Shown: one piece after another, positions 328 through 40,098 of the stretch | Numbering within the stretch: position 1 is the first letter of the stretch | How the letters are laid out: each line of letters opens with the position of its first letter | Sequence record: DRR723986_8697 | Strand: one strand, 5' to 3' | DNA: 46,382 bases | Position numbers and translations under genes: made by a program | Notes under the pieces: generated by a model | What the model saw: the letters and a program-made list of their open reading frames with translations, nothing else | Database searches by the model: none | What the model was told of the DNA's origin: nothing

Positions 328-1452
328 TTATACGTAGTTATTCAACATCACAGGCATTACTAGCATTAGGATGTCTTCGTTTTCATCCTGCTCAGCCGGA
401 AGGATCAAACCTGCACGGTTAGGCGCAGAGAACTTCAAGCTAACTTCTTTGCAAGAAAGGTTATTCAACATTTCTACCAGGAATTTAGCGTTGAAACCGA
501 TTTCGATATCCTCTCCATCGTGCTCACAGGAAAGTCTTTCGTTCGCCTCGTTAGAGAAATCAAGATCTTCAGCAGAAATCATCAATTCGCTACCCGTCAA
601 TTTCAATCTTACCTGATGCGTGGTTTTATTTGCATAGATCGCGATACGACGAAGTGAACTTAACAATTCTGAACGGTCAATAGTCATCACGTTCGGGTTT
701 TCCGCAGGAATTACATTTTCGTAATCAGGGAAACGCTCGTCGATCAAACGACAAATCATCTTGATGTTATTGAAGTTGAAATAGGCGTTTGACTGATTAA
801 ACTCTACAGTTACCGGAAGATTTTCTGAAGGCAAAGTTGACTTCAAAAGGTTCAATGCTTTACGAGGAATAATCAAAGTAGCAGCATCCTGTGAAGCGAT
901 ATCTACTCTTCTGTATCTTACCAGTCTATGTCCGTCAGTTGCTACGAAGGTAGTATTTGTTGGGCTTAGATTGATGTAAACACCAGTCATTGCAGGACGA
1001 AGTTCATCTGAACTAGTTGCGAAGATCGTGTTAGAAACAGCTGAAGAAAGCACCTCAGTAGACATGTCTACAGAAGTAGCGTTGCTTACAGTTGGGATTT
1101 TCGGGAAGTCAGTTGCATTCTCACCAGCCAATCTATATCGACCATTGTCAGAACTGATCTCAACCGCGTAAGTATCATGATCAATGCTGAAAGTAACCGG
1201 CTGCTCTGGTAGGTTTTTCAACGTCTCGATCAAAATCTTTGCAGGCACCGCGATATTTCCATCTTCCTTAGCCTCCACGTTGATTTCAGTAATCATAGAA
1301 GTCTGCAAATCAGATGCGGTAATGGTCAATAGACTCTCTTTGATCTCAAAAAGAAAATTTTCCAAAATTGGCACTACGGGATTGGTTGTTACCACACCGT
1401 TGATAGCCGAAAGCTGCTTTAATAATGCAGAAGAGGAAACAATAAATTTCAT
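328..1452 (-). CDS. dnaN: DNA polymerase III beta sliding clamp
   Basis: 374 aa; ITASDL, VATDGHRL, FPDYENVIP, IGFNAKFL and C-terminal LVMPV motifs. Confidence 0.98.
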   Translation of the reverse strand: MKFIVSSSALLKQLSAINGVVTTNPVVPILENFLFEIKESLLTITASDLQTSMITEINVEAKEDGNIAVPAKILIETLKNLPEQPVTFSIDHDTYAVEISSDNGRYRLAGENATDFPKIPTVSNATSVDMSTEVLSSAVSNTIFATSSDELRPAMTGVYINLSPTNTTFVATDGHRLVRYRRVDIASQDAATLIIPRKALNLLKSTLPSENLPVTVEFNQSNAYFNFNNIKMICRLIDERFPDYENVIPAENPNVMTIDRSELLSSLRRIAIYANKTTHQVRLKLTGSELMISAEDLDFSNEANERLSCEHDGEDIEIGFNAKFLVEMLNNLSCKEVSLKFSAPNRAGLILPAEQDENEDILMLVMPVMLNNYV

Positions 1453-1475
1453 ATGATTATAATTTTTCTATTGAA

Positions 1476-1544
1476 GGTCATATGGAATCTCGCATAGATT
1501 ATGAACATCCCAATCTGAGAAGTTTAGTCATGCTCGATTTCATA
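1476..1544 (-). promoter_or_regulatory. Conserved 5'-leader hairpin element, copy 1 (candidate cis-regulatory RNA)
   Basis: Minus strand TATGAAATCGAGCATG...TATGCGAGATTCCATATGACC, ending 23 nt before the dnaN ATG; shared with 27726-27798 and 39876-39945. Confidence 0.6.
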
Positions 1545-27659: not shown

Positions 27660-27667
27660 GCAGGTCA

Positions 27668-27721
27668 TGTAAATAAGCTGCAAGATTTCAAAGATGTATT
27701 TTATCTTGCAGCTTATTTACA
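27668..27721. repeat. Perfect 19-bp inverted repeat after fbp
   Basis: TGTAAATAAGCTGCAAGAT-16 nt-ATCTTGCAGCTTATTTACA; no U-tract. Confidence 0.85.
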
Positions 27722-27725
27722 ACGC

Positions 27726-27798
27726 TATGAAATCGAGCATGAGTAAGAACCCCTTGCATAAAGGTTTTACTGTAATGCATGCGAGATTCCATGTGACC
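27726..27798 (+). promoter_or_regulatory. Conserved 5'-leader hairpin element, copy 2
   Basis: TATGAAATCGAGCATG...CATGCGAGATTCCATGTGACC, ending 21 nt before ATG 27820. Confidence 0.6.
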
Positions 27799-27819
27799 GT
27801 TGGAAAACAATATATACAC

Positions 27820-28986
27820 ATGACAAAAAACAAACTATACCTGCCTATCGCTCTCGTAGCATCTGGCATCGCCTTAGCAACATCTTGCTCACCTAAAGAG
27901 CAAGAAGCTGTAGTCGAACCTATCGATGAGACTTACGCTGTTCAAACTGAACAGCTATTAATCAATGTTGACACCCTTTATACTGGATTTGAAAATCCTT
28001 GGGGCATGACATGGCTATCTGATGGTAGAATGCTTGTTACTGAGAAAAAAGGAGAAATCCTTATTTTCAAAGACGATAAATTCACCGGAGAGAAAGTACA
28101 GGGGCTTCCTGAGGTTTGGACAAAAGGTCAATCTGGTTTGTTGGACGTTACAGCTCATCCAAAATTTGATGAGAATGGCTGGATCTATATTTCCTATGGC
28201 AAGCTAATGCCAGATAGCACATCCGCTACAACGATCACAAGATTTAAGCTAGAAGGCAATAATGCAGTCAATCAAGAAGAGCTGATTCAATCGCTTCCAG
28301 CATGGAAAAGCAATGCGCATTACGGTAGTCGAATTGTATTCGATAACGACGGATACCTTTACTATTCTAGTGGAGACCGTCAAAACACTCCTACAAATGC
28401 ACAGGATTTGACCAACTCTCATGGAAAAATTCACCGAATTCATGACGATGGCAGAATCCCGACTGACAATCCATTTGTAGATACTGAGGGTGCCGTAGCT
28501 TCAATCTGGACTTATGGAAACAGAAACCCTCAAGGCTTGTATTTCGACAAAGAAAATAATAGACTTTATGAAACTGAGCACGGTCCTCAAGGTGGTGACG
28601 AGTTGAATTTGTTGGAAAAAGGAAAAAATTACGGTTGGCCAGTGATTACTTGGGGAATTGGATATGATGACAAACCAGTTTCTGACATTCAGGAAAAAGA
28701 AGGAATGGAACAACCATTAACTTATTATGTACCATCCATCGCTACTGCGGGTATGACAATGGTCACTTCAGATAAATATCCGGCTTGGAAAGGCGATATT
28801 CTTATCGGTGCATTAAAGAAAATGCACATCAACCGTGTAGACATGAATGGATCTACCGCCGGAGAGCAAGAAATTATGCTTCAGGATATCGGACGTGTAC
28901 GCCAGGTTTCTCAAAGCCCAGATGGCTATATTTATGCTATTACTGAAGGTACAGGCTTAATGGTAAAGTTGATTCCGATTAGATAA
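27820..28986 (+). CDS. PQQ-dependent soluble sugar dehydrogenase (GdhB/YliI-like) lipoprotein
   Basis: Start moved to 27820 so the lipoprotein signal (MTKNK...LATSC) is N-terminal; PWGMTW, GLLDV, HYGSRI, YGNRNPQG, EHGPQGGDELN. Confidence 0.9.
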   Translation: MTKNKLYLPIALVASGIALATSCSPKEQEAVVEPIDETYAVQTEQLLINVDTLYTGFENPWGMTWLSDGRMLVTEKKGEILIFKDDKFTGEKVQGLPEVWTKGQSGLLDVTAHPKFDENGWIYISYGKLMPDSTSATTITRFKLEGNNAVNQEELIQSLPAWKSNAHYGSRIVFDNDGYLYYSSGDRQNTPTNAQDLTNSHGKIHRIHDDGRIPTDNPFVDTEGAVASIWTYGNRNPQGLYFDKENNRLYETEHGPQGGDELNLLEKGKNYGWPVITWGIGYDDKPVSDIQEKEGMEQPLTYYVPSIATAGMTMVTSDKYPAWKGDILIGALKKMHINRVDMNGSTAGEQEIMLQDIGRVRQVSQSPDGYIYAITEGTGLMVKLIPIR

Positions 28987-37404: not shown

Positions 37405-39854
37405 TATTCTCTAGTGTAGTTACCTATACGAATCACATCTGCAAACACTCCTGCAGCAGTTACGTCTGCACCTGCACCTGGACCTCGGATGATCATTGGT
37501 CTATCACGATATCTATCTGTAGTCAATAGAATCATATTGTCACTTCCTCCCAATCCACTAAATGGATGAGAAAGTGGAAGGGAATTCAACCCTACTTTCG
37601 CTTTGCCATTCTCCAAAGTTGCCATGAAGCGAAGTTTTTCTCCTTTTGCTTCAGCTGTTTTCAGCATGTCTTCAAAATCAACATCATGCGTTTTCAACAC
37701 TTCAAAAAACTCTGGAACAGTACCTAAATTTTGACAATCTTCAGGTACCATGCTTTGGATCTCGATAGAGTCAAACTCCAAATCCTGCTCTGCCTCACGA
37801 CCCAAAATCAGGATCTTCCTAGCCACATCCATTCCACTCAAATCATCTCTAGGGTCTGGCTCAGTAAAGCCAAGTTCTTTCGCTTTTTTTACCACCTCAG
37901 AGAAAGGATCACCTTTTTCAAGTTCAGAGAAAATATAATTCATCGACCCAGAAAGTACCGCTTCTATACGAATCACCTTATCTCCACTTAGCATCAAATC
38001 CTGTAACGTATTGATTACTGGAAGTCCTGCCGCTACGTTGGTTTCATACAGGAATTTCACACCACGTTTTTTTGCCAAACGCTTAAGTGATTTGTATTGC
38101 TCCATGGAGCCAGAATTGGCTTTTTTGTTTGGAGTAACGATTGCAACTTTAGCTTCCAAAATCTGAGAATAAAGCTCAGCCACATCCTGGCTTGCGGTAC
38201 AATCCACAAATACAGAATTGGAGAAGTTCATCTCTTCCATAGTTCTGATGAATTTACCCAAATCAGTTTGATCATCAGAATCACTCAGTTCATATGGATT
38301 GGAAAGGTCGAAGCCATCTTCATGGAAAGCCATATATCGACTGTTCGCAAGACCGTGGATCTGAATATCCAATTCATTATCCCCACGGAGCTTTTGCTGT
38401 TGGTTAGCTATCATTTTGATCAGCGCTTGACCAATCAACCCTGTACCAACCAAAAATACGTGAAGCACCTTATTTTCTGATAGGAAAAACGCCTCATGAA
38501 GCGCGTTCAGCGCCTTCTGCAAATCTGGCTGAGGAATCACAGCCGAGATATTCAACTCCGAACTCCCCTGCGCAATTGCTCCTACGTTAATATTGTTTCT
38601 TCCCAAAGCACGGAACATACGTCCCGAAGCACCTGGGTTATGCTTCATATTTTCGCCAACTACGGCTACAGTAGCCAAGTTATGTAGCAGTATGACCTCA
38701 TCCATTTCTCCGGATTTGATTTCATAGAAAAACTCCTTTTCCACTGCCTCTTTTGCCAAATACGCTTCCTGAGTTTTGATCGCCAAGCAGATACTATGTT
38801 CAGAGGAAGCCTGAGAAATAAGCAAAATATTTACTCTCGCCTCAGCCAAAGCTTTGAATACTCGACTCGTCCCAACTGCAGAATCCAACATTCCTGGACC
38901 TTGAACCGTCACAATAGAAACATTTGGAATAGAGCTAATCCCTTTGATCAATGCTCCAGGGCTTACTTCCCCGTTGATCAGTGTTCCTGGATTTTCAGGC
39001 TCAAAGGTGTTTTTAATATAAATAGGGATGCTATTTCGCATCGCTGGCTGCATGGTCGCCGGGAAAATAACTTTGGCACCAAAATGCGAAAGCTCCATCG
39101 CTTCATTATAACTCAGCTGAGGAATGGTGAAGGCAGTGTAAACCAACTTCGGGTCTGAAGTCAACACGCCCGAAACATCTGTCCAGATTTCAAGACACTC
39201 AGCATTTAAAGCTGCCGCAAAAATGGCCGCTGTATAATCTGAGCCTGATCTTCCAAGTGTAGTAGTTTCTCCTTTTTCAGTAGATGCGATAAAACCAGTG
39301 ATTACTTTGATTCCCTCATGCTTTGCAAAATAGTTTTTGATGGCAGCGTTGGTGACATCAAAGTCAACCTTCGCCTGACCGAATCGATCATTGGTACGGA
39401 TTACTTCGCGTGCATCAAGAAACTGAGTTTTCAGTCCATGTCCCTGCATGGATTCTGCAAGGATAAATGCCGCCAGCCTCTCTCCAAAACTTGCCACATA
39501 ATCCAGTGTGCGAACAGAATTTTCTTTGATCAGGTAAATGCCATGAAAAAGATCCTCTAACTCTTTGAATCGTACTTTCACAAAGGTCATCACGGTTGAC
39601 TGGCTCTGTACAGAGATCAACTGACGTACGATGGTCAGATGCTTTTCTTCCAAAGATTGTAGGACTTCACGGTACGCCTCATCTCCTTCTCTAGCCAACT
39701 GGGCTATCTTCAATAAGCTTTCCGTCACTCCTCCAAAAGCAGAAAAAACAATAGCTGTTTCATGTTCTTTGAGCGTTTCCTTAATGATAGAAAAAACTCG
39801 CTGTATATTTTCAGGGTTCGCTACGGATGAGCCACCGAACTTGATGATTTTCAT
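37404..39854 (-). CDS. thrA: Bifunctional aspartate kinase/homoserine dehydrogenase I
   Basis: KFGGSS, TTLGRSGSD, two ACT domains, GTGLIG, YETNVAAGLP, TEPDPRDDLSG, GPGAG. Confidence 0.97.
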   Translation of the reverse strand: MKIIKFGGSSVANPENIQRVFSIIKETLKEHETAIVFSAFGGVTESLLKIAQLAREGDEAYREVLQSLEEKHLTIVRQLISVQSQSTVMTFVKVRFKELEDLFHGIYLIKENSVRTLDYVASFGERLAAFILAESMQGHGLKTQFLDAREVIRTNDRFGQAKVDFDVTNAAIKNYFAKHEGIKVITGFIASTEKGETTTLGRSGSDYTAAIFAAALNAECLEIWTDVSGVLTSDPKLVYTAFTIPQLSYNEAMELSHFGAKVIFPATMQPAMRNSIPIYIKNTFEPENPGTLINGEVSPGALIKGISSIPNVSIVTVQGPGMLDSAVGTSRVFKALAEARVNILLISQASSEHSICLAIKTQEAYLAKEAVEKEFFYEIKSGEMDEVILLHNLATVAVVGENMKHNPGASGRMFRALGRNNINVGAIAQGSSELNISAVIPQPDLQKALNALHEAFFLSENKVLHVFLVGTGLIGQALIKMIANQQQKLRGDNELDIQIHGLANSRYMAFHEDGFDLSNPYELSDSDDQTDLGKFIRTMEEMNFSNSVFVDCTASQDVAELYSQILEAKVAIVTPNKKANSGSMEQYKSLKRLAKKRGVKFLYETNVAAGLPVINTLQDLMLSGDKVIRIEAVLSGSMNYIFSELEKGDPFSEVVKKAKELGFTEPDPRDDLSGMDVARKILILGREAEQDLEFDSIEIQSMVPEDCQNLGTVPEFFEVLKTHDVDFEDMLKTAEAKGEKLRFMATLENGKAKVGLNSLPLSHPFSGLGGSDNMILLTTDRYRDRPMIIRGPGAGADVTAAGVFADVIRIGNYTRE

Positions 39855-39875
39855 GTGTTATAAGTTGATTTTATG

Positions 39876-39945
39876 GGTCACATGGAATCTCGCATAGTTG
39901 ATAATCATACCTCTGTGTAAACCTTCGGCTATGCTTGATTTCATA
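39876..39945 (-). promoter_or_regulatory. Conserved 5'-leader hairpin element, copy 3
   Basis: Minus strand TATGAAATCAAGCATAG...CTATGCGAGATTCCATGTGACC, ending 21 nt before the thrA ATG. Confidence 0.6.
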
Positions 39946-40032
39946 AATTTTACTTCTGGAATTAATTACTTGGGAAATTAATATTAGCCAATTAAGGCCT
40001 AGGGGGCGGGTACTTAAAATATATAGACGGGA

Positions 40033-40098
40033 TTAACCCGTAATCGTGGTACCAATCCATGTCGTCATAGAAAAAGTGGTGCAGGCTCTCGCTTCCAT
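40033..40098 (-). CDS. Putative thr operon leader peptide (21 aa, MEARACTTFSMTTWIGTTITG)
   Basis: 7 Thr and 2 Ile in the last 15 codons; same strand as thrA, stop 178 nt upstream of the thrA ATG; alternative in-frame ATGs at 40146 and codon 11. Confidence 0.7.
   Translation of the reverse strand: MEARACTTFSMTTWIGTTITG

Follow-up and report, generated by a model that had tools for sequence, protein, structure and literature searches.

Short repeats that occupy start codons are known from mycobacteria. The mycobacterial interspersed repetitive unit (MIRU; Supply et al. 1997, as cited in a 2025 review, PMC12548453) is apparently mobile, inserts at start codons and brings an open reading frame (ORF) coupled at -4 nt to the gene that follows, an arrangement which limits the harm of insertion. 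Among the miniature inverted-repeat transposable elements (MITEs), BrickBuilt of Porphyromonas (PMC4596501) was taken as a comparison case. Here we describe a hairpin-bearing unit present in three copies in a stretch of DNA of 46,382 nucleotides (record DRR723986_8697; the whole stretch is called the window below), where it stands directly before dnaN, a dehydrogenase gene and thrA. It is in our judgement probably a small non-autonomous mobile DNA repeat, MITE-like and ~87-93 bp long, which homes to start codons and occurs across Bacteroidota.

A first-pass annotation of the window had placed the three copies at 1476-1544 (-), 27726-27798 (+) and 39876-39945 (-) and had preferred to read them as an undescribed cis-regulatory RNA, naming as its alternative an element of the MITE or repetitive extragenic palindrome (REP) kind with insertion bias. 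The copies lie on those strands and at those positions. A two-arm pattern gave three matches in the window and none in 100 dinucleotide shuffles, the 20-nt 3' block gave three matches with up to three mismatches where a mean of 0.02 was expected, and a covariance-model (CM) search of the whole window returned these three copies only. The distances from the TGACC tail to the ATG are 23, 21 and 21 nt, and the downstream products were identified by Pfam as DnaN, a GSDH-family (pyrroloquinoline quinone-type) glucose/sorbosone dehydrogenase and a bifunctional aspartokinase/homoserine dehydrogenase (thrA), in agreement with the spacings and genes first reported. No window hit was obtained with Rfam 15 at gathering thresholds, none at E<=10 or E<=1 on four copy-bearing stretches and none on 14 loci from other families and orders, in line with the first-pass annotation, which had recognised no known riboswitch or T-box; sub-threshold hits were noise, or miRNA-like on a terminator hairpin beside copy 2. 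A description of the element was not found in the literature, subscription papers and supplements lying outside the search.

In two respects the boundaries first drawn had to be changed. The tail is not invariably TGACC, being TGRCC in the alignment A1 (35 copies with flanks, from an initial 38 less one duplicate and two carrying an extra inserted palindrome), and the element does not end there: conservation continues through an A-rich tail to CA-N-ATGAAA, which is the start codon. The unit is thus composed of ATGAAATC, GA and GCATG, an inner hairpin, an interior segment (CACAcAGrGGGAUGAUUAU) conserved within the genus and not across the phylum, then CATGC, GA and GATTCCAT, followed by N-TG-RCC, ~22 nt of A-rich sequence, CA-N' and the gene's own ATGAAA. 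It opens with a duplicated ATGAAA at its 5' end and stops directly before the ATGAAA of the gene, the G-poor, A-rich tail that ends in CA-N' measuring ~25 nt. ATG-to-ATG distances are mostly 90-92 nt, with 92 the commonest, and 87-93 nt across the phylum. The imperfect inverted arms are 15-18 nt long; the right arm lies ~30 nt inside the unit and is terminal only across a circle or tandem junction. The sole ORF within the unit is an upstream open reading frame (uORF) of at most 32 codons, and there is no transposase gene.

Filled sites, empty sites and choice of target

The nearest genome, G001, and its relatives served as the comparison set. At four loci (dnaN, the GSDH gene, infA-rpmJ and thrA) filled sites and precisely empty sites were found with the same junction of flank and ATGAAA. 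For dnaN the empty form, in which ...ccctacgat is joined directly to ATGAAATTT, occurs in G046, G045, G014, G003, G011 and others, while the site is filled in the window, G001, G025, G023, G044, G016 and G024, holds two units in G022 and has very diverged copies in G006, G015 and G047. The GSDH gene has the bare junction of flank and ATGAAA in G014, G025 and G045, a degenerate form in G046 and a unit in the window and G001 (98% identity). Between infA and rpmJ, where copies lie inside an operon, 16 genomes have an empty 6-7-nt spacer before ATGAAAGT; five small genomes and G006 have the unit, G020 has it in 5'-truncated form, and in G047 the spacer is an unrelated one of 227 nt. Finally, the thrA site is empty (...agaagtaatattt joined to ATGAAAATC) in G045, G046 and 19 other genomes and filled in the window, G001, G014, G025, G015, G006 and G022. 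Genome G014 has at least 130 copies, yet its dnaN site is empty.

Further evidence of movement comes from the copies themselves. Identical cores occur at unrelated loci within one genome, and there are genome-specific bursts of near-identical copies; within a sample of G014 described below, the closest non-adjacent pair is 96% identical. Head-to-tail neighbours in arrays have an identity of 0.71 (n=10) and random pairs one of 0.70 (n=770). Because neighbours are no more alike than random pairs, arrays grow by repeated insertion at each unit's ATGAAA and not by slippage; new copies land on the ATGAAA of genes and of resident copies alike, which gives arrays of unlike units. At the level of sequence comparison, these data establish both mobility and target choice. 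The empty sites, the unrelated genes, the dissimilar arrays and the bursts displace cis-regulatory RNA as the preferred reading and make the REP/MITE-like alternative of the first-pass annotation the better description, the insertion bias being extreme and its form ATG-AAA. Judged on these comparisons, the unit is probably a selfish element that homes to start codons and not a regulator of the riboswitch kind.

To define position and orientation, 97 CM hits were taken with their flanks, from which two reverse-strand palindrome echoes and two fragments were removed and duplicates collapsed to leave 91 distinct copies. The aligned ATG opens an ORF of at least 60 aa or rpmJ in 75 of the 91, and in two more once a misalignment had been fixed, with ~10 leading into another unit and ~4 into neither gene nor unit. 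ATGAAA is present at the 3' junction in 81/91 copies, on both sides of the unit. Where the gene opens ATGCAA, ATGACA or ATGAAT the shared flank is as short as ATG or ATGA and the 5' end is still ATGAAATC; the repeats may be a true target-site duplication or homology at the crossover.

Since the flanked loci had been picked as best matches, 798,082 bp of the high-copy genome G014 were taken regardless of hits. Copies were located by nhmmer with a hidden Markov model of the core and then inspected, which gave 48 copies (~60 per Mb); cmsearch with default filters reported 39, as it under-reports tandem units because adjacent hits overlap. Twenty-six of the 48 abut the ATG of an ORF that is at least 60 aa long, two are within 9 nt of such an ATG and 11 are followed by another unit, so that 39 stand on a start codon directly, within 9 nt or via an array. 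The other nine are elsewhere intergenic, mostly upstream of a same-strand gene, and none of the 48 lies in the interior of a long ORF. Both the 91-copy set and this sample bear out the fixed polarity and start-codon spacing first noted for the three window copies: insertion is in a single orientation, sense, at start codons.

A rough census of the ATGAAA sites outside elements was made for the sample, taking as gene starts the first ATGs of ORFs that reach 100 aa and do not overlap. Predicted start codons were occupied in 26 cases and unoccupied in 110 (~19%, 26/136), other non-coding sites were occupied in ~10 cases and unoccupied in 209 (~4.6%, 10/219), and the 852 sites inside ORFs were all unoccupied (0%). 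ATGAAA is found at 130 of the 610 predicted starts and at 89% of the element junctions; the target therefore includes the AAA after the ATG. A three-unit array of a second subfamily (arms AUGAAAUACCC/GGGUAUUCCAU), situated upstream of the dnaN promoter box in G024 (L060 2055-2345, minus strand), ends at ATGAAATTAACAGGATAA, which is not a gene; non-start ATGAAA sites are therefore also used.

Other repeats were seen within or beside the units. A very small second palindrome (core CCCGATAGCTATCGGG, with variants) is nested in many of them, usually directly after GATTCC (L017 ~1559-1577; L029; L039 1380-1508; G014 C1:65969-66021, C12:269459 and C34:265630), and is also present in distant Bacteroidota (Arenibacter L272, Chitinophaga L269); it looks like a separate mobile palindrome that targets the unit. 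A third nested palindrome, of the CTGCCT...AGGCAG or CCTGCCGGCAGG type, is found in some units, inserted in the 5' arm at GAGC^ATG or close to the 3' arm (G014 C12:180243-180371, C1:65969-66021 and C34:105210-105288; L106 1614-1715). One unit of G014 is followed by an ORF of 1507 aa (C1:18630-21900) with extensive internal tandem repeats of ~180-210 nt period, which encodes a large repetitive protein, probably a surface one.

The family is large. The CM built from A1 (R1) found it in 24 of 31 genomes of the genus, with at least 130, 125, 113 and 108 copies in the largest and 66 in G001, as had been surmised from three copies in one window; the large genomes of the genus carry 60 to more than 130 copies each and its small-genome clade 0-1. 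Hits were obtained in 54 of 101 genomes of the family (one genome per genus), several of which have at least 39, in 10 of 121 genomes of the order, six of those ten being outside the family, and in 38 of 151 genomes of the class, a tally which includes G339 (an unpublished genome) and G264 (probable contamination). With a relaxed pattern, 2-94 hits per genome were found in 11 of 25 genus genomes and none in 16 further genera belonging to the order; the reversed pattern, run as a control, gave 0 everywhere. A pattern of 3' arm, tail and start matched at least 120 stretches in named contigs. The hosts among the matches listed include Algoriphagus (many), Cyclobacterium, Lunatimonas, Lunatibacter, Aquiflexum, Sphingobacterium, Chitinophaga, Chitinophagaceae, Kordia, Polaribacter, Arenibacter, Aestuariibaculum, Lutibacter, Crocinitomicaceae, Draconibacterium, Prolixibacteraceae and Aureispira, and the named orders with units are Flavobacteriales, Sphingobacteriales, Chitinophagales and Bacteroidales. 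Judged by these hosts, the DNA of the window probably comes from the genus Algoriphagus.

Every host seen belongs to Bacteroidota, except for metagenome-assembled contigs labelled as uncultured Limnohabitans, a betaproteobacterium. Three of these (L239, L247 and L304) contain complete units with co-varying arms and are probably mis-binned or mislabelled Bacteroidota, not a host outside the phylum. A 2.6-kb contig of another family (L231, G264:C6:1-2633) is identical around the element to the genus locus L034; as this is probably bin contamination, the class-level hit in G264 should not count.

The coordinates of the window copies are collected in Table 1. The 5'-arm positions of copy 1 are invariant or nearly so in A1. 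The start of the gene behind copy 2 was fixed by comparison with orthologues and by the Pfam GSDH match on 27820-28986, whereas the mechanical ORF call begins at 27694 (+) and adds 42 spurious residues to the dehydrogenase because the frame stays open through the whole of copy 2. Between the stop codon of the upstream gene and this copy there is a long, near-perfect hairpin, probably the terminator of that gene. Genomes with filled and with empty sites alike have a conserved box on the 5' side of the insertion point, ~35 nt before dnaN, and we take it to resemble the Bacteroidetes -7 promoter element. The thrA copy is preceded, ~90 nt upstream, by a short ORF that encodes MTTWIGTTITG-stop, with five Thr and two Ile in 11 codons. 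Its TT(I/M)ITG-stop ending is conserved in most large genus genomes, a G+C-rich segment comes after it, and it looks like a threonine/isoleucine attenuator leader peptide; Rfam gave no Thr-leader hit at this ORF.

Table 1. Positions of the three inserted units, their parts and two neighbouring features in the window
Feature	Position	Strand	Details
Copy 1, whole inserted unit, 91 nt	1453..1543	-	Duplicated ATG to base before dnaN ATG; CM 1445-1545, 93.4 bits
Copy 1, 5' arm	1529..1543	-	Decoy AUG in AUGAAAUC (1543-1536), GA loop (1535-1534), GCAUG (1533-1529)
Copy 1, variable interior	1497..1528	-	Inner hairpin degenerate in this copy
Copy 1, 3' arm	1479..1496	-	UAUGC (1496-1492), GA (1491-1490), GAUUCCAU (1489-1482), N-U-G (1481-1479)
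Copy 1, tail and dnaN start	1450..1478	-	ACC + A-rich tail (1478-1453) ending CAU, then start codon (1452-1450)
Probable terminator hairpin of upstream gene	27666..27723	+	
Copy 2, whole inserted unit, 93 nt	27727..27819	+	Before GSDH-family gene; CM 27725-27829, 78.4 bits
Copy 2, 5' arm	27727..27741	+	AUGAAAUC, GA, GCAUG
Copy 2, 3' arm	27778..27795	+	CAUGC, GA, GAUUCCAU, G-U-G
Copy 2, tail and gene start	27796..27822	+	ACC + A-rich tail ending CAC, then start ATG (27820-27822)
Copy 3, whole inserted unit, 90 nt	39855..39944	-	Before thrA; CM 39847-39946, 95.7 bits
Copy 3, 5' arm	39930..39944	-	AUGAAAUC, AA, GCAUA
Copy 3, 3' arm	39879..39896	-	UAUGC, GA, GAUUCCAU, G-U-G
Copy 3, tail and thrA start	39852..39878	-	ACC + A-rich tail ending CAC, then start codon (39854-39852)
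Short ORF upstream of thrA copy	40033..40068	-	11 codons

The upstream reading frame and the A-rich tail

We propose that the unit survives at start codons by being transcribed within the 5' leader and being built to be harmless. The hairpin would hide the duplicated AUG and the internal AUGs, while the A-rich tail would recreate the unstructured initiation region, lacking a Shine-Dalgarno (SD) sequence, that is used by Bacteroidia ribosomes. In some copies the uORF from the old AUG might also reach its stop at the real AUG, in an ATGA overlap, or just short of it. For Flavobacterium johnsoniae, Baez 2019 (PMC6847099) reports that A at -3, -6, -12 and -13 together with low structure favours initiation, that SD sequences are not used and that extra AUGs near starts are depleted. 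The 5' flanks of our copies are A-enriched at -12 and -11 (53 and 46 of 83), as in native initiation regions, and the tail has A at -4 to -6, -8 and -11 to -13. Flank and tail suit an element which has to hide AUGs in helices and supply an open A-rich tail, and the unit may plausibly influence translation as RNA.

The uORF was followed in 101 distinct copies from the genus, family and order. It overlaps the gene as ATGA (-4) in 29, stops 0-20 nt before the gene ATG in 34, stops early in 27, is in frame with the gene in two and runs past the gene ATG in one, the remaining eight lacking one of the two ATGs. Many genus copies thus encode a peptide of ~30 codons from the 5' ATG, and the commonest ATG-to-ATG distance, 92 nt, yields the ATGA overlap. 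These counts bear on the possibility that the unit is tolerated through coupling of the MIRU type, with initiation at the old AUG in its native upstream region, translation of a ~30-codon uORF, termination at the ATGA overlap or a few nt upstream of it and re-initiation at the real AUG. The copies of the first two classes, the two in frame and the precedent of start-codon insertion with a -4 ORF in the MIRU (PMC12548453) speak for it. Against it stand the 27 early stops and the copies across the phylum: of 112 with a 5' ATGAAA, the overlap is present in 18, a stop near the start in 21 and an early stop in 69. Among the rpmJ orthologues, whose sequences were read by eye, the uORF is broken at codon 2, 5 or 16 in three of five species and the stem is kept. 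Unit lengths differ by non-multiples of three, the invariant blocks have no synonymous third-position variation, and the decoy AUG would be paired if the stem forms. We regard general coupling of this type as a possible but doubtful explanation; it may help some copies and is not a general constraint. A conserved leader peptide or small protein as a general feature was rejected, as uORFs are often broken, those of the rpmJ orthologues included.

The hairpin and its possible roles

The arm pairing, the A.C mismatch and the RA/GA internal loop of the original description are all present in the window copies. The supplied structure has 90.4% of its cells paired compared with 84.6% in shuffles (0/500 as high as the real value) and 16-46% after sliding of the partner. 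Arm sequences are nearly constant within the genus and the inner hairpin co-varies, its second pair being AU in 51 copies, UA in 9, GU in 4, GC in 2, UG in 2 and CG in 1. Between lineages the arms change jointly while AUGAAA and UUCCAU stay fixed: the genus itself includes UACCC/GGGUA, other families have C-GA-GCAUG/CAUGC-GA-G, CCC/GGG, UGGCC/GGCCA, UGACC/GGUCA and UGCCC/GGGCA, and the classes across the phylum include UA-G-CCAUG/CAUGG-CG-UA, UAUCCAU/AUGGAUA and UCUCCAG/CUGGAGA. It is on these classes that we base arm co-variation and not on ungapped arm complementarity, which for own versus cross pairs was 5.27 vs 4.05 of 9 and 9.2 vs 8.1 of 14; asymmetry of the internal loops and some wrongly chosen 3' arms keep the difference modest. 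The strand-specific hairpin with its conserved mismatch was upheld in the larger set, A.C being kept in 80/91 copies with A-U in eight and G.U in two. Of the compensation first seen in GCATR/YATGC, the changes among the window copies (G.U, G-C, A-U) stand, but the fifth pair is weak family-wide (Watson-Crick 43, G.U 20, other 18 of 81), and its G may close the inner hairpin instead.

A second pairing, absent from the first-pass annotation, involves the start codon. The end of the 3' arm, CAU-N-UG, is complementary to CA-N'-AUG at the gene start, so that in copy 1 CAUAUG at the dnaN start can pair with CAUAUG of the 3' arm, and minimum free energy (MFE) folds of copies 2 and 3 pair CAUGUG with CACAUG, start codon included. 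On A1 this helix is 93.9% paired versus 27-58% when slid. N/N' is GC in 38, AU in 19 and CG in 15 copies, a standard pair in 76/90, and phylum-wide it is Watson-Crick in 118/127 copies with all four pair types, the search pattern having left N and N' free. In one lineage another position of the helix changes on both sides, CAUCCG occurring with CGGAUG. The same complementarity extends the main stem across a tandem or circle junction, where CA-N'-AUGAAAUC is paired with GAUUCCAU-N-UG, so that it is as compatible with a DNA substrate as with an mRNA helix; the arm covariation is a signal equally expected of a DNA hairpin. The arms and the junction-spanning stem would then be the substrate of a recombinase or transposase. 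One further pairing was rejected, that of the interior UGAUUAU with AUAA(A/U)CA before the start, the middle pair of which fails in 56/83 copies without compensatory change.

Several observations have to be set against a mobile repeat that homes to start codons and is adapted to them. Presence or absence at a site would look alike after gain and after loss. The ~4-fold preference for true starts over other non-coding ATGAAA sites may come from targeting or from selection alike, and it depends on crude gene calls. The tail has C at -3 instead of the favoured A. Mismatches of the inner hairpin are G.U in 25 cases and A.C in 21, and individual copies seem to decay neutrally; folding energies are ordinary, with z-scores ranging from -0.4 to -2.9 in a set of five copies and from +0.3 to -1.6 in six copies at rpmJ, so that a stable RNA on thermodynamic grounds was downgraded as weakly supported. 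No match to a consensus-like copy was found in the plasmid and phage collections searched. The sample of 798 kb from G014 contains no autonomous repeat resembling an insertion sequence (IS), its long repeats lying only inside one large repetitive gene, and no cognate autonomous IS with the same ends was found there or at 12 fetched loci of Y1 transposases, whole genomes not having been searched exhaustively. The Y1 transposases, of the IS200 type or REP-associated (RAYT), do not track copy number in the genus, and the 12 loci have no element ends nearby.

A different view of the same pairings, drawn by analogy, is that the hairpin is a folded single-strand recombination site, resembling an integron attC site or an IS200/IS605 end, whose 3' arm would recognise the target by base pairing of UUCCAU with ATGAAA, N-U-G being matched to CA-N' at the end of the same unit. 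The transposon would thereby home specifically to Met-Lys start codons throughout Bacteroidota. The A.C mismatch would prevent a reverse-strand ATGAAA target from arising inside the element. The unit would also act as a portable SD-less initiation module, its anti-AUG switching between the old and the real start. We consider this combined proposal speculative and rather unlikely; if it holds, the host would gain a ready handle on hundreds of genes.

Alternatively the unit may be a cis-regulatory leader RNA whose hairpin is a sensor or protein-binding site, mobility having merely assembled the regulon. The CCAU of the 3' arm would toggle between decoy AUG and real AUG and so set the translation of many genes together. 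Such a role would account for the constant sense position adjoining the start codon, for a 3' arm that can pair with either AUG (with the real start in the MFE folds of two window copies), for the N/N' covariation of the start-codon helix and for the interior segment kept in the genus. The rpmJ copy, too, is retained in five small genomes otherwise nearly free of copies, with long stems of different sequence. However, the genes concerned are unrelated (dnaN, thrA, the dehydrogenase, rpmJ, lpxC/fabZ-like genes and many for secreted proteins), close relatives have empty orthologous sites at each of the four loci compared, and a sensor would have no reason to occur in arrays of two or three units. 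G.U being no commoner than A.C weakens the case for a maintained RNA function, the folding z-scores are ordinary, the junction-spanning DNA stem explains the N/N' covariation equally well, and the interior of the genus copies is not conserved across the phylum. Taken together, a regulatory leader is decidedly unlikely.

Mobilization by a Y1 HUH transposase of the IS200/IS605 or RAYT type, acting on a single-stranded hairpin with guide pairing as in REPs or palindrome-associated transposable elements (PATEs), is very improbable. Pairing of a guide with the cleavage site is a feature of IS200/IS605, and the unit has a strand-specific hairpin with a conserved mismatch, a 3' arm complementary to the ATGAAA target, an N-U-G complementary to the unit end CA-N' and clean empty sites, with Y1_Tnp genes in 29/31 genus genomes; but no Y1_Tnp gene (PF01797) was detected in G022 or G002, which have 108 and 13 copies of the unit, and such genes are present in small genomes with 0-1 copy, the geometry of one hairpin with the guide on its 3' side is unlike IS608 ends, and direct repeats of ATG(AAA) flank the unit while IS200/IS605 makes no duplication. 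With neither a copy-number correlation nor shared ends, a Y1 transposase was rejected as the mobilizer.

Relation to known systems

If the unit is the start-codon-homing repeat that we propose, Bacteroidota possess a phylum-wide family of tiny mobile elements with the start codon as their niche; in one Algoriphagus-like genome about one in five ATG-AAA starts, and ~4% of the sampled genes, bear a unit. The tail would then be a naturally selected, generic SD-less initiation region placed before hundreds of unrelated genes, and the unit as a whole might serve as a compact insulator and initiation cassette for Bacteroidota. An orientation- and sequence-specific target combined with a junction-spanning hairpin would point to a mechanism new for the phylum. 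For annotation, the duplicated ATG and an open frame mislead start calls, as happened at copy 2 (27694 vs 27820). Even a merely passive MITE would be a repeat family to mask and a strain marker.

With riboswitches, T-boxes and ribosomal-protein leaders the unit shares a structured sense 5' leader by the initiation region, covariation and many copies per genome; it differs in that its genes share no function, its orthologous sites can be empty, it forms tandem arrays and it matches no Rfam family. The likeness to integron attC sites is one of architecture only. Both have obligatory mismatches in a conserved stem base, an unpaired spacer within the stem, a terminal structure that varies in form and length, strict strand polarity and a stem completed only across the circle junction. 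The unit has no attC box consensus, cassette gene or integron arrangement, and it targets hundreds of chromosomal start codons.

REPs and the bacterial interspersed mosaic elements (BIMEs) associated with RAYTs, together with the PATEs of IS200/IS605, are also strand-specific imperfect palindromes, possibly read as single-stranded DNA, with guide-like complementarity to the target and to their own end. REPs, in contrast, lie mostly after genes and in either orientation, and no link of the unit to a Y1 transposase was found in the genus or at the 12 loci fetched.

The MITEs and structured repeats such as Correia/CREE, ERIC, RUP, BOX and Nezha are likewise small, non-coding and of high copy number, with imperfect inverted arms. 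Like them the unit is small and without a transposase gene, has dispersed copies that are polymorphic for presence and absence, is flanked by short direct repeats as if by a duplication, undergoes nested insertions and is presumably co-transcribed with neighbouring genes. It departs from them in having its right arm ~30 nt internal, in using one orientation only at a start-codon sequence of 3-7 nt, in occupying ~19% of the ATGAAA starts of one genome and in the lack of an autonomous partner with the same ends among the sequences searched.

The closest analogue among described systems is the mycobacterial MIRU. According to the review cited above, the MIRU is apparently mobile; both are short interspersed repeats of up to ~100 bp, oriented with transcription, inserted at start codons and found in tandem arrays; our unit, too, enters start codons in the direction of translation. 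The hosts belong to different phyla, the translation system of Bacteroidia here is SD-less, and no sequence similarity is apparent. The -4 uORF is seen in only 29/101 units and is mostly broken across the phylum, and arrays are assembled from unlike units instead of slipped identical repeats. The dominant feature of our unit is its long, imperfect hairpin, the arms of which co-vary, and it also carries an A-rich initiation tail.

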